DNA of 44,323 nucleotides from Candidatus Saccharimonadota bacterium (GTDB taxonomy: Bacteria; Patescibacteriota; Saccharimonadia; Saccharimonadales; UBA10212), in NCBI GenBank assembly GCA_025934715.1, contig JAICWR010000003.1:1-44323 (forward strand). The letters run 5' to 3'. The translations under genes were made by a program, and so were the position numbers. Positions 16,535 to 19,947 of the stretch are shown piece by piece. Below the pieces are notes generated by a model, which was not told the DNA's origin, searched no databases, and saw only the letters and a program-made list of their open reading frames with translations. Positions within the stretch are counted from its first letter, which is position 1. Every line of letters begins with the position of its first letter.

Positions 16535-17245
16535 TTAAGTATTTTTCTTCTGCTTAGAGTGGGAGAGTCTTGCCACCACGCCCTCGACGAAAGTTGGCGT
16601 GATAGTTGTTACTAAGGGCACATAGTCTTCAGGAAGCGATATTTTAAGTGTTCTCTCGGGAGAACCTTCGTGCTTGTCAGAGCTGCGGCTGAAGACCATT
16701 ATTTTATATTCTCCAAGATCCCACCGAGCGTGTCCAAATGTATGAAGCGTGGGTTTATCATTGCTTTCGACATACTCGACATTGAAGTTTATGTTTTGGT
16801 CTCGTGGGACAGCGATGACATCTATGACACAGCCGGTCATATTAGACAGATACTCAATTTTTAAGTCACGCTTTCTGTTTGCGGAATCTTCTTCGAATTT
16901 CGATATGTCAGGAAGAACAAGAGTCCATAGATGACGTGCTTTTTGTAAGCCTTTCAATGGAGTCCATTGAGACCTGTCAATCACGTCGCCTTCTTTAACT
17001 CGACTATGCCCTATGCCTGAGCCGTGAATTGAAAAATGGTCGTAATCAACGTCCTCTTCGAATGTCTTAATATCTATACGGAACTTTGATCCCGGCTGAG
17101 ACGACATCTCGGTTATGCCACGCTTGCCGGGCGCATTCTTCCTGTTCGGGACAAAAAGATAAATACTTGCGTCCTTTGGATTGTAGTCAAGGTTAGCTAC
17201 CTTATAAGATCTGTCATCTCTCGTGACGAAAACTCGAGCGACCAT
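16535..17245 (-). CDS. Hypothetical protein (AT-rich orphan)
   Basis: A 236-aa ORF starting 17 nt after the tmk-fusion stop. It is visibly AT-richer than the flanking genes. I recognise no motif. Notable strings are HFSIHGSGIGHSRV and FGHARWDLGE. Confidence 0.6.
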   Translation of the reverse strand: MVARVFVTRDDRSYKVANLDYNPKDASIYLFVPNRKNAPGKRGITEMSSQPGSKFRIDIKTFEEDVDYDHFSIHGSGIGHSRVKEGDVIDRSQWTPLKGLQKARHLWTLVLPDISKFEEDSANRKRDLKIEYLSNMTGCVIDVIAVPRDQNINFNVEYVESNDKPTLHTFGHARWDLGEYKIMVFSRSSDKHEGSPERTLKISLPEDYVPLVTTITPTFVEGVVARLSHSKQKKNT

Positions 17246-17262
17246 AAATCTATAATAAGCGG

Positions 17263-19227
17263 CTAGGATTTTTTTGGTTTGCGGCTGCGGCGCTTGGATG
17301 GGCGGTGGGCCGGCTTAATCTTGTTTTTGGGCATTTTAGCTTCCATTGGCAGACCGTGGAGGATGTCCCACAGCAGCGGATGGGCTTCGCTGACCCTTTC
17401 GGAAATAGCGGATGATAAAGGTCGGAGATTCGCGTCCGCGTGGTAAATAACCTGTTTTAGCGAGGCGGCATCAACGCTCAGCTGCCAGCGGACCCTGTGG
17501 CCCAGCAACGTCGCGTAAGCGGCTGTCTGGTCTAGCCCGGCGCCCTGCATCAAACTGAACAATTTTAAGCTCTCATCAAAACACTCGGCATAAAGATCGT
17601 CGGCACCGGCCTCTTCGATAATTGAAGGCGTATCAAACCCGTACCGGGCAGTGAATGATTGCACCCGGAAAGCCGGTGATTTACTGATTTCGACAATTTT
17701 ATCCAAAGCCAACTGGTCGGATAGGATATCCAGTTTATACCGTACTTGCTTGAGAATACTGCTGCGGCCAGCCGCTTCCTTGAGGCCTTGGTACTTCTGG
17801 CTGTAAGACCAGTTAGAGACGCCTTCGACTATATCTTCCAGCGGCAAATCGGTGTGCGGGTATAAGGACTCCGCCAGCAAATCGAATTCCAATTTTGGAT
17901 AAGCCGCAGCAACATTTACGACATCATCGGACCCCAGCTTGGAGAGTTCGTTATAAGGAAGCTGGCTGATTATGCTGCTGATGGAGTCCATGCCATCTGT
18001 TTCCAGCGGCCGCTTGAAATCTTCGGGCCATTTTTTCCTGGCGGCCAGGTACAGCTGCTGGGCTGTCCACTGGGCCTCATCGCCGTCACTGGAGAGCAGA
18101 TTCTCGGATAATTGCCTTAGTCCCTCTTTCCGGACACCGAATTCAAAGCTGACAAGCGCGCTGAGCGGCGTTAGAGGCAACAACAGCCCCTCGACACTAT
18201 TTTGCGGGTTGGATTTCACGCTCTCTGGTTGGTCTTCCAGATACCTCTCGAGCTTGTCTGCTATCTGCCGGTGTTTTCCAGCCAGTAGCTCCATAGTCGC
18301 CCGGTAATGTTCAGCAATATTCTTTGGCATCCCCTGGGGCGTGTAATAACTGTAGTCGCTCGCTTGCCAGCCACGGTAAGACGGACTGATCGAGGTTTTT
18401 TCATTCCGCTGCAGGAGCAGCCTGAGTAGCAGGCTGACGTCCTTAAAGATATGCCGCAGCTCGCCGTCCGGCGCGTCCACTGAGCCCGCAGGTTCTTTAG
18501 CAGGCGCGCCTAGCTTGACCACCACACTATGCGAGGGGTGAGGGCGCTCAGCCGGCAGCAGAGGCTTAAGCTTCTTCCAAATAAGGTCATTGACCTTGGC
18601 GACCGTCATCAGCTTGTCATTTTTGGCGCACTCTATGGCTTTATAATCTTTGGGAAACAGCCGGCACAGGATGTCATAGGTCTCTAATGATTTAATCAGG
18701 AATTTGGCGTTCTTTTCGTGGTCGTCGAGCTTAGCACCGGTTTTAGCCGCCCTTTCCTCAATTAGTTTCAGAGAGATGTCAGCTGGCACCCGCAGGAAAA
18801 AGGAAACATCCGGCCTCGGTATGCCCAACAGCTCAAACTCAAGGTTATCTTCCCAGATAAAAAAGCCCCGCTGCTCGACCGGATCTTCGAATTTCGCCCC
18901 CTGGTGGGCCATATTGGAACCGACGTAACGGTTCGCCAGTACAATCTTGCCATCGCCCAGGGCTTTTTTGATCGCTTTGGAGGCCTCAAACCTGTCCAGA
19001 GCGTAAAACAGAGAGGCGGTGTAGGGGCTGAGCTTAGTCGCTTGCCCGTAGGCGCCGGCCAGATATCGCCGGACGAAATAGCTGGACTCCTCGTCATAGC
19101 GTGGAAAATCGAACTCCTCGACATCGTAGCCGATGGCCTTCAGCCTCTCCTTTAACAGGTTTAGCTGGGTGGCTTTGCCGGACCCATCAGATCCTTCTAT
19201 GACGATGAACAAGCCGCGGTGTCTCAT
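17263..19227 (-). CDS. tmk: Thymidylate kinase fused to a ~440-aa C-terminal region resembling two tandem degenerate ThyX-like repeats
   Basis: N-terminus: GLFIVIEGSDGSGKATQ (P-loop), PRYDE..., LFYALDRF and ANRYVGSNMAHQ give the dTMP kinase call. C-terminus: two repeats with ThyX-like signature strings (LQRNEKTSISPSYRG...YYTP...LLPLTPLSALVSFEFGVRKEGLRQL, and ISKSPAFRVQSFTARYGF...ATLLGHRVRWQLSVDAASLKQVI). Confidence 0.85.
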   Translation of the reverse strand: MRHRGLFIVIEGSDGSGKATQLNLLKERLKAIGYDVEEFDFPRYDEESSYFVRRYLAGAYGQATKLSPYTASLFYALDRFEASKAIKKALGDGKIVLANRYVGSNMAHQGAKFEDPVEQRGFFIWEDNLEFELLGIPRPDVSFFLRVPADISLKLIEERAAKTGAKLDDHEKNAKFLIKSLETYDILCRLFPKDYKAIECAKNDKLMTVAKVNDLIWKKLKPLLPAERPHPSHSVVVKLGAPAKEPAGSVDAPDGELRHIFKDVSLLLRLLLQRNEKTSISPSYRGWQASDYSYYTPQGMPKNIAEHYRATMELLAGKHRQIADKLERYLEDQPESVKSNPQNSVEGLLLPLTPLSALVSFEFGVRKEGLRQLSENLLSSDGDEAQWTAQQLYLAARKKWPEDFKRPLETDGMDSISSIISQLPYNELSKLGSDDVVNVAAAYPKLEFDLLAESLYPHTDLPLEDIVEGVSNWSYSQKYQGLKEAAGRSSILKQVRYKLDILSDQLALDKIVEISKSPAFRVQSFTARYGFDTPSIIEEAGADDLYAECFDESLKLFSLMQGAGLDQTAAYATLLGHRVRWQLSVDAASLKQVIYHADANLRPLSSAISERVSEAHPLLWDILHGLPMEAKMPKNKIKPAHRPSKRRSRKPKKS

Positions 19228-19233
19228 AAGCTT

Positions 19234-19947
19234 CTACAAAGTTTTAAGGCCTTTTATGGGCTTGGGCATCGAACGTCTGTCCAGGTAAGCTTTTGGCAGC
19301 ATCAATTCCGGCCGCCAACTTTTAATCAGCTGGTTTAAATCAGTGCCGGATTGGTACTTACCGCTGAAACCGCGGTGCCTGCCCTGGCCGTAATTCCCCT
19401 CCACCGGGCCAGTTTCATGGAAAACGATTTGGCCGATACGCTCGCCGACCGGCAGAAGGATGATTTCACTGTGGTTGAGGTTGAAAACCTCGAGCGTCAA
19501 CCGGTTTATATAGCCGGGGTCGATCCATCCGGCGTCGAAACTGACAGCCACGCCGTTACGACCCCAACTGGAGCGCGATCGGACTTCGCAGGCGCCGGGC
19601 GGCAAGATGCCAAAAAACTCATGGGTGTGGGCCAAAATGCGCTCTCCTGGACGGACCGGAATAACCGGATGGTTGGGTGGGATCCCCCTGAGCTGCTTTA
19701 TACCATTTTCTTCGCACCACTGCTTATGCGGCGTAGCCGTCAGGGCGCCTTCAAAGTATCTTTGCACATCCCCTTCATCAAAAGGGTTGTAGACCGGGTG
19801 GTCGGCCGAGCGCTCGGTGCGGTAGTAATTGTGGCCTAAAGTGACGTCTAGGCTGGCATGGGCCACGTGGCGCAGATTGAAGGGCGTACACAAAATATGA
19901 CCGTCCTTGACGGCGGCTATAATCTGCTTGTTACTAAAGACTGCCAT
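19234..19947 (-). CDS. dcd: dCTP deaminase family protein (Dcd/dUTPase superfamily)
   Basis: MAVFSNKQIIAAVKDGHILCTPF...ASLDVTLG, plus GWIDPGYINRLTLEVFNLN, is typical of dCTP deaminases. At 237 aa it is somewhat longer than the classical ~190 aa. Confidence 0.8.
   Translation of the reverse strand: MAVFSNKQIIAAVKDGHILCTPFNLRHVAHASLDVTLGHNYYRTERSADHPVYNPFDEGDVQRYFEGALTATPHKQWCEENGIKQLRGIPPNHPVIPVRPGERILAHTHEFFGILPPGACEVRSRSSWGRNGVAVSFDAGWIDPGYINRLTLEVFNLNHSEIILLPVGERIGQIVFHETGPVEGNYGQGRHRGFSGKYQSGTDLNQLIKSWRPELMLPKAYLDRRSMPKPIKGLKTL

Follow-up and report, generated by a model that had tools for sequence, protein, structure and literature searches.

Why does a bacterial thymidylate kinase (Tmk) carry a 440-aa C-terminal extension that resembles a flavin-dependent thymidylate synthase (ThyX, or FDTS), and can this extension still synthesize dTMP? 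We address this question for a gene on the minus strand of a 44,323-nt stretch of DNA from a Candidatus Saccharimonadota bacterium (contig JAICWR010000003.1; hereafter the window), for the whole of which we listed the open reading frames (ORFs) and their translations. An initial annotation of the gene had offered two readings: a fused synthase-kinase with non-canonical substrate-binding residues, or a catalytically dead ThyX-derived module attached to Tmk, with a putative role in regulating it. The data favor the second as far as the dead module is concerned. Taken as a whole, the best explanation is probably that the protein is an active dTMP kinase whose C-terminal two thirds are a retained, ThyX-derived pseudoenzyme.

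Fold and descent of the C-terminal region

The gene divides into the following parts, where low confidence in a structure prediction refers to the predicted local distance difference test (pLDDT).

17263..19227, minus strand: the whole gene, Tmk plus degenerate tandem ThyX; 654 aa and a stop codon in the ORF list, with no internal stops
18583..19227, minus strand: dTMP kinase domain, aa 1-215 (Pfam PF02223, alignment to thymidylate kinase (TMPK) structures, Foldseek, substitution rates)
18463..18582, minus strand: linker, aa 216-255, predicted to be partly disordered (pLDDT <50 for aa 232-247 in the full-length model)
18013..18462, minus strand: ThyX-like half 1, aa 256-405, N-terminally truncated and without canonical substrate or FAD residues (hhalign, profile match)
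17920..18012, minus strand: connector between the halves, aa 406-436, low confidence (pLDDT <50 for aa 412-433)
17353..17919, minus strand: ThyX-like half 2, aa 437-625, a homologue of the catalytic half with 0 of 8 catalytic residues (hhalign, motif table)
17263..17352, minus strand: Lys/Arg-rich C-terminal tail, aa 626-654, and the stop codon (pLDDT <50)

The homology of the C-terminal region could be recognized only with relatives and profiles, because searches with the single sequence were empty: neither Pfam nor NCBIfam gave a Thy1 match for the window sequence, and phmmer with the C-terminal region retrieved no PDB entry. A search with aa 210-654 returned 83 homologues, nearly all of them Tmk fusions of ~650 aa and at least 80 sharing the architecture of the window protein; every organism name given among them was Saccharibacteria or Saccharimonadales. 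In databases these degenerate fusions are labelled dTMP kinase, deoxynucleoside kinase or hypothetical protein. The profile check suggested by the initial annotation succeeded through these relatives, as Pfam Thy1 was matched by 5 of the 44 that we aligned. P0004, which is 48% identical to the window protein in the C-terminal region, scored 38.8 bits against a cut-off of 24.8, with its best stretch in half 1. Two further kinds of protein have clear ThyX character. P0081 (740 aa) consists of Tmk followed by a strong Thy1 match in two stretches (E 5e-38), and P0082 and P0083 (~550 aa) are stand-alone tandem ThyX proteins.

When profiles were compared, half 2 of the window family aligned to the catalytic half of intact tandem ThyX with an hhalign probability of 100% (E 4e-41), and half 1 aligned to the intact half 1 with a probability of 97.8% (E 9e-13), spanning positions 77-237 of 251. 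The best PDB match of the C-terminal profile was M. tuberculosis ThyX (E 0.014), where half 1 aligned to residues 110-228. Foldseek with the full-length model (pTM 0.56) found Tmk structures only, and a model of the C-terminal region by itself was therefore required. The AlphaFold model of aa 245-632 (pLDDT 84.6, pTM 0.80) had 138 Foldseek matches at E ≤1e-3; the top 50 in the PDB were all ThyX/FDTS (probability 1.00, E from 4e-6, template modelling (TM) score ~0.6 to the target). From the hhalign, PDB profile and Foldseek results together, we therefore regard as solid that the C-terminal region has the ThyX fold and descends from tandem ThyX. The initial annotation had called the ~440 C-terminal residues ThyX-like and had made this depend on a ThyX-like fold, which is what the aa 245-632 model shows.

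The same annotation had described two ThyX-like copies. Tandem descent is borne out by the intact relatives and by secondary-structure elements that recur in the same order along the model, and the duplication is visible solely in these two ways. A sequence-level internal repeat was not detected: half 1 and half 2 have no detectable similarity to each other by hhalign (E 0.74), and even the halves of intact proteins match each other only at E 9.5e-4.

Lost and retained catalytic residues

With the intact fusion P0081 as reference, we compared 42 family members at each alignment column, and scored proteins by how many of eight canonical half-2 residues they keep. The roles of lost and kept residues were taken from published work (PMC6514825, PMC3498832); the dUMP-binding set of M. 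tuberculosis FDTS (MtbFDTS) comprises Arg87, Arg95, Arg199, Ser105, Arg107 and Tyr108 (PMC6514825). The window protein keeps none of the eight residues. Three sites in half 2 are central.

17683..17691, minus strand: E513-I514-S515, where ThyX has its RHR triad (R600-H601-R602 in the P0081 alignment)
17464..17472, minus strand: D586-A-A588, replacing N-A-R (alignment to P0081)
17635..17661, minus strand: Q523-S-F-T-A-R528-Y-G-F531, the retained substrate-loop motif (family alignment; counterpart of MtbFDTS Ser105, Arg107 and Tyr108)

The RHR columns vary across the 42 family members with no new consensus, and the ThyX motif RHR(x)nS is absent. The Arg found four residues before RHR in intact relatives is Asp509 in the window protein and N, S, D or E across the family. 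The equivalent of Arg95 is Glu and the segment of Arg199 is deleted; the conserved dUMP-binding set is not present as a whole. The initial annotation had read the triad as K-S-P in copy (ii) and as Q-R-N in copy (i). Alignment to intact proteins corrects both, placing E513-I514-S515 and R274-N275-E276 there, and the copy (i) triad is already K-G-R in intact fusions.

The FAD-contacting motif residues are missing as well. Where intact proteins have N-A-R the window protein has D-A-A, a deletion of 4-5 residues just downstream removes part of the ELR...Q-x-H segment including its Arg, and an 8-residue gap falls in the ...RRQKPGRALE... (His) segment before the first strand of half 2. Going by T. 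maritima ThyX structures, we take FAD to be contacted by N-x-R, by the His/Gln that follows ELR and by the His segment preceding strand 1. Half 1 has lost ~76 residues; relative to P0081 it has gaps of 46 and 7 residues, and EQSTRY is replaced by variable residues.

One part of the active site has survived. T526, R528 and Y529 are the kept equivalents of Mtb Ser105, Arg107 and Tyr108, and the loop columns read Q523, S/T526, P527 (Ala in the window protein), R528, Y/F/N529, G530 and Y/F531, with Q523, R528 and G530 invariant. Two other blocks are conserved, Y571...L-L-G-H-K/R-x-R-W-Q and H616-P-L. The earlier claim that the distal S/T-x-R is retained in both copies thus holds for copy (ii), where T526-A-R528 is invariant, and fails for copy (i), where S-Y-R sits on columns that vary across the family.

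The alignments support a ThyX-derived module that lacks the residues needed to bind FAD and dUMP and would be catalytically dead. ThyX fold and homology, the score of 0 of 8, the variable RHR columns and the deletion of two catalytic segments all argue for the second reading of the initial annotation. The contrary reading is that the region is a working thymidylate synthase with a non-canonical active site, so that dcd and this gene together cover the path from dCTP to dTDP. The kept Ser/Arg/Tyr substrate loop would fit such an enzyme. Against it, all FAD-contacting motif residues and three dUMP-binding arginines are gone, the lost positions vary within the clade instead of converging on a new conserved set, and catalytic segments are deleted.

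The tail LPMEAKMPKNKIKPAHRPSKRRSRKPKKS (aa 626-654) has 12 Lys or Arg among its last 25 residues and is predicted to be disordered. Such a tail is typical of short members of the degenerate clade and takes the place of the '...RLEAER...' ending of intact proteins; its composition could suit nucleic-acid binding or another interaction.

Intact and degenerate fusions

An exhaustive profile search returned 2,628 representative clusters (50% identity) at E ≤1e-3 and 586 at E ≤1e-30. Among 137 top representatives, 101 carry Tmk, and 83 of these 101 keep at most two of the eight residues while five keep at least seven; in contrast, 22 of 28 stand-alone tandem ThyX proteins keep seven or eight. The S/T-P-R-Y-G-Y loop has the opposite distribution, being complete in 91/101 fusion representatives versus 7/28 stand-alone proteins. 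In 80 loci returned by a metagenome scan, scored together with L001-L004, 53 fusion ORFs keep 7-8 of the eight residues and 27 keep at most two. Intact-fusion ORFs measured from stop to stop are mostly 740-865 aa where complete; the intact protein has ~770 aa.

Both forms lie directly after dcd in almost all cases with upstream sequence, and both are found in a nusG-rplK-rplA...rplJ neighborhood whose ribosomal proteins are very similar to the window's. Therefore, intact and degenerate fusions occupy the same locus in related genomes. We calculated a neighbor-joining tree from 182 half-2 columns, leaving out the eight catalytic columns. All 93 degenerate and 15 intermediate representatives formed one clade with no intact member, and the sister group consisted of intact fusions.

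With the intact fusion P0089 as query, 3,906 proteins were found at E ≤1e-20, with labels such as 'thymidylate kinase/thymidylate synthase ThyX' or 'FAD-dependent thymidylate synthase' in Candidatus Saccharimonadales or Saccharibacteria. The window gene has the architecture of this annotated family (a single ORF for Tmk and then tandem ThyX, located after dcd in the rplA...rplJ region), but it scores 0/8, where catalytic competence of both halves would call for 8/8. The window protein is a degenerate derivative of a Tmk-ThyX fusion that is known to databases and uncharacterised. The literature that we searched held no paper describing a Tmk-ThyX fusion, or ThyX in Saccharibacteria or the candidate phyla radiation; to that extent the initial annotation was right that no such fusion has been characterised, although the intact form is abundant and already annotated in metagenome-assembled genomes (MAGs) of Saccharimonadales.

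Two loci in the survey are split. L093 (1947-3914) has an in-frame stop after a Tmk part of 228 aa, and a ThyX-like part of 427 aa follows; its near-identical counterpart L092 is fused. The intact-type L161 is divided into two overlapping ORFs. These could be either sequencing errors or natural splits.

The source of dTMP

Within the 44-kb window, tblastn found no thyA, and no thyX, folA or tdk was present among the window ORFs. The immediate upstream neighbor is dcd, as the initial annotation had stated.

19234..19947, minus strand: dcd, dCTP deaminase family, 237 aa (Pfam DCD, E 2e-29), the conserved upstream partner

The TAG stop of dcd and the ATG of the fusion are separated by a 6-nt spacer, and inspection of the junction sequence showed no promoter-like or terminator-like site in it. 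A thyA hidden in the window or at this junction was considered and rejected, given the negative tblastn search and the length of the spacer.

Relatives reveal where dTMP may come from. On a 421-kb contig (L001), a canonical ThyA (PF00303) is encoded between dcd and a degenerate fusion. The same dcd-thyA-fusion order occurs in L165/L167, where the rest of the contig is collinear with the window, and in L166 and L168-L170, including a 734-kb contig. At least 120 clusters have a ThyA at least 81% identical to that of L001, and all named ones are Saccharimonadales. The gene is also found in other positions: as a thyA-folA pair in an unrelated context (L171, L172), and away from dcd and tmk in the species-representative genomes L005-L008. 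In GCA_035701765.1, rplK-rplA-dcd-fusion (P0048) lies on one contig and thyA-DHFR (P0243) on another; in GCA_050730915.1, rplK-rplA-dcd-fusion (P0051) and thyA-folA (P0262) are likewise on separate contigs. These two assemblies settle that ThyA co-occurs with the window-like dcd-fusion arrangement. Among the 53 intact-fusion loci, a ThyA-like gene was found within 10 kb only in L158.

These distributions bear on the working synthase. It could draw on the tight and very widely conserved adjacency of dcd and fusion with its 6-nt spacer, on the lack of thyA within the 44-kb window and on the strong purifying selection described below. However, genomes with this degenerate fusion also encode canonical ThyA and FolA. 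We consider a working synthase very improbable, because the lost positions are variable and have not been re-invented and because ThyA is present. The fused synthase-kinase of the initial annotation is unlikely for the same reason, as is its proposal that dCTP is converted to dTDP by two genes, since in relatives with the degenerate domain thyA either separates dcd from the fusion (L001, L165-L170) or forms an operon with folA on another contig of the assembly (GCA_035701765.1, GCA_050730915.1). The annotation had also supposed that a canonical thyA elsewhere would make the domain unrelated to ThyX. Relatives do carry such a gene, but its presence points to a non-catalytic domain, not to an unrelated one.

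Several observations accompany these loci. L158 has a fully intact fusion (8/8) with a divergently oriented ThyA-like gene just upstream and no dcd, and L149 and L153 have an intermediate fusion (RHQ, 4/8) with a weaker ThyA-like neighbor; all three may be transitional stages of ThyX-to-ThyA replacement. The separate thyA-folA pair of Saccharimonadales (L171, L172, L174, L176) has conserved surroundings, in which an FAD-linked oxidase gene lies upstream and an ORF of ~190 aa without known function downstream. The longer loci (L171, L172, L176) continue downstream with a UvrD/PD-(D/E)XK helicase-nuclease gene. The L176 pair adjoins cytochrome oxidase subunit genes, which is unusual for Saccharibacteria or else points to a binning problem.

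Constraint on the ThyX-derived module

We compared the window gene with L085, its closest relative with available DNA (89% aa identity). The proportion of nonsynonymous differences (pN) was 0.05-0.08 and that of synonymous differences (pS) 0.57-0.72. The resulting ratio of nonsynonymous to synonymous rates (dN/dS) was ~0.08 for half 1, ~0.02 for half 2 and ~0.03 for Tmk. In more distant pairs dN/dS was unusable, as synonymous sites were saturated. Across the family, the reading frame is intact in ~100 representative clusters (50% identity) and many C-terminal positions are invariant. By these measures the dead domain is under strong purifying selection that matches the level seen in the kinase, and it can be lost in some lineages.

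A module of this kind might instead be a functionless relic on its way to loss, one whose deletion simply has not happened yet. Decay is visible in the eroded motifs and in the truncation of half 1, in L093 an in-frame stop falls between the kinase and the ThyX-like part, and some Saccharibacteria carry a stand-alone Tmk beside dcd and thyA. This Tmk of ~220 aa, with no ThyX-like part, is found in a thyA...dcd-tmk arrangement in L011, L053, L066, L069 and L070. Yet a dN/dS of 0.02-0.08, equal to that of the kinase domain, is hard to reconcile with a relic, and so are the frame kept across ~100 clusters, the confident compact AlphaFold model and the many invariant positions. The level of constraint makes a neutral relic improbable, if somewhat less so than a working synthase. 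The low dN/dS, the intact frame and the confident compact model lead us to conclude that the domain is maintained by selection.

Selection could also act on a newly acquired role. The module may have been repurposed as an allosteric sensor of dUMP, dTMP or dTTP acting on the kinase, as a docking platform for ThyA or Dcd or, with its basic tail, as a tether to nucleic acid or the ribosome. The greater uniformity of the S/T-P-R-Y-G-Y loop in fusions (91/101) than in catalytically intact stand-alone ThyX (7/28), the very low dN/dS of half 2, the clade-specific Lys/Arg-rich tail and the position of the gene within a ribosomal-protein cluster are all consistent with this. However, the basic tail is of low complexity and variable in sequence, and the loop is also conserved in intact fusions, where it may be a structural feature of the fused architecture. 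As a replacement for the scaffold role preferred below, such repurposing is unlikely, though it deserves more weight than a relic. The idea that the pseudoenzyme uses its invariant loop to bind a uracil or thymine nucleotide and thereby regulates or feeds the kinase, or docks ThyA or Dcd in a complex for dTTP synthesis, with the tail perhaps adding a nucleic-acid or ribosome tether, stands somewhat higher but is still unlikely.

The kinase domain

The initial annotation placed a dTMP kinase at residues ~1-210, and all searches agree. Residues 10-202 match Pfam Thymidylate_kin (PF02223) above the cut-off with E 8e-23, and NCBIfam dTMP kinase models match too. The best PDB sequence match is M. 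tuberculosis TMPK (1g3u, E 2e-18), whose alignment to residues 7-177 has no large gaps, and the full-length model superposes on Tmk structures with a TM score of ~0.8 normalized to the target (Foldseek). The kinase motifs are the P-loop EGSDGSGKAT (aa 11-20), FPRY (41-44), LDR (77-79) and NRY (99-101). K18 is the P-loop Lys, D14 corresponds to Mtb D9, R79 to Mtb R74 (which contacts the dTMP phosphate) and R100 to Mtb R95, and an equivalent of N100 is present; K18, R79 and R100 are kept in most fusions. From these residues, the Tmk domain looks intact and would be an active dTMP kinase.

18925..18933, minus strand: NRY at the Tmk DR(Y/H/F) motif, aa 99-101 (motif alignment)

Asn replaces the Asp of DRY in 82/126 degenerate and 15/27 intact fusions. 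The NRY variant was considered as a sign of kinase decay and rejected, since it is as frequent in intact fusions and is thus a lineage trait.

In many intact fusions (L112, L116, L126, L127, L131, L145 and others) the N-terminal domain matches the family Tmk hidden Markov model only weakly (E 1e-7 to 1e-14), and L127, L131 and L145 have a separate Tmk-like ORF a few kb upstream. In those lineages the N-terminal kinase may have diverged or changed its role. P0079 (564 aa) begins within the Tmk domain, at MLTDRFVGSNMAHQG, and lacks the P-loop third of the kinase; P0024 (560 aa), on a 96-kb contig, is similarly short, with no Tmk Pfam match on record. Their shortness possibly reflects wrong start calls or N-terminally decayed kinases.

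The locus

Gene order around the fusion is secE-nusG-rplK-rplA-dcd-fusion-(236-aa ORF)-rplJ-rplL-dnaX-dnaB-recR-cysS, and the window also holds ribosomal-protein, rpoA and secY genes; it is a typical Saccharibacteria housekeeping region. The 236-aa ORF between the fusion and rplJ (16535-17245, minus strand) has no Pfam or NCBIfam match and is not found at the corresponding position in the closest relative L177, nor in L002-L004, L167 or L175; it looks like a lineage-specific insertion. The public gene call (P0001) has 649 aa, five fewer than the ATG-initiated 654-aa ORF (window 19209-19227). Codon 6 of the fusion is TTG and the ATG stands 6 nt past the dcd stop, so that the true start is uncertain.

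Proposed history and function

We propose descent from a bifunctional ancestor in which Tmk was joined to a tandem ThyX and whose gene followed dcd in the nusG-rplK-rplA...rplJ cluster, a form still intact in the sister clade. In the window's clade, canonical ThyA with FolA would have taken over dTMP synthesis. The ThyX module would then have lost RHR, the Arg four residues before it, N-x-R, the ELR...Q-x-H and His segments and ~76 residues of half 1, and with them presumably the ability to make dTMP. It would nevertheless have been kept as a compact, two-lobed ThyX-like unit under purifying selection. Its most likely role is that of a scaffold preserving the ThyX oligomeric architecture for the kinase: a non-catalytic assembly unit that may hold the kinase in a dimer-of-pseudodimers arrangement inherited from tetrameric ThyX. 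The surviving S/T-P-R-Y-G-Y loop may still bind a uracil or thymine nucleotide. The pathway would run from Dcd, which supplies a dU nucleotide, through ThyA and FolA, which make dTMP, to the Tmk domain, which makes dTDP.

Five points weigh against this reading. dS is near saturation between the window gene and L085, the only close pair, and the dN/dS values are approximate. The presence of ThyA in the window's organism is deduced from relatives that are 41-47% identical in the C-terminal region, its own genome being known for 44 kb. Evidence for thyA in the same assembly comes from binned MAGs. A shared acceleration of rates could have exaggerated the grouping of degenerate fusions into one clade. 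Finally, ligand binding or another acquired function would also be compatible with the invariant loop and with the very low dN/dS of half 2.

Implications and comparison with known systems

If correct, the scheme describes a non-orthologous displacement of ThyX by ThyA/FolA in ultra-small Saccharibacteria, in which the displaced enzyme was kept as a conserved pseudoenzyme domain on the enzyme that acts after it in the pathway. Annotations of ~650-aa proteins as 'dTMP kinase', 'deoxynucleoside kinase' or 'hypothetical protein' hide this ThyX-derived domain, and metabolic reconstructions should not score the degenerate form as a thymidylate synthase. The intact fusion, abundant in Saccharimonadales and biochemically uncharacterised in the literature searched, may channel substrate from the synthesis of dTMP to its phosphorylation, and the intact/degenerate pair is a natural experiment on the non-catalytic contribution of the ThyX fold. 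A nucleotide-binding or docking pseudoenzyme, if it proved true, would be the first described non-catalytic function for that fold.

Among known systems, Mycobacterium-type TMPK (1g3u) resembles the N-terminal domain but has DRY where the window protein has NRY, and it lacks the 440-aa C-terminal extension. In protozoa and plants, bifunctional DHFR-TS also fuses enzymes of consecutive steps around dTMP synthesis, with both halves active; its folds and partners are unrelated, and its parallel with the intact Tmk-ThyX ancestor is a conceptual one.

Canonical homotetrameric ThyX/FDTS (T. maritima TM0449, M. tuberculosis Rv2754c, and the H. pylori and PBCV-1 enzymes) has the same fold as the C-terminal model. 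Identity is 10-14%, and the window protein is without RHR, the equivalents of Arg95, Arg199 and Arg87 (Mtb numbering), N-x-R and the His. A canonical monomer has ~220 aa, whereas the window chain amounts to a single pseudo-dimer. Stand-alone tandem ThyX proteins (520-560 aa; P0082, P0083) likewise hold two ThyX-fold halves in one chain, with half 1 already non-canonical and the motifs in half 2. Unlike the window protein, they have no kinase domain and their half 2 is catalytically intact (7-8/8 in 22/28).

The closest system is the intact Saccharimonadales Tmk-ThyX fusion (~770 aa; P0089, P0081), which forms the sister clade. It shares with the window protein its domain order, its locus, usually after dcd, the Q-T-P-R-Y-G-Y loop and the LLGH+xRW and HPL blocks. 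The intact fusion alone keeps RHR, N-A-R, ELR, Q-x-H, the His segment, a full half 1 with xGR/EQSTRY and the '...RLEAER...' C-terminus, while the window protein is ~110 aa shorter and ends in a Lys/Arg-rich tail.

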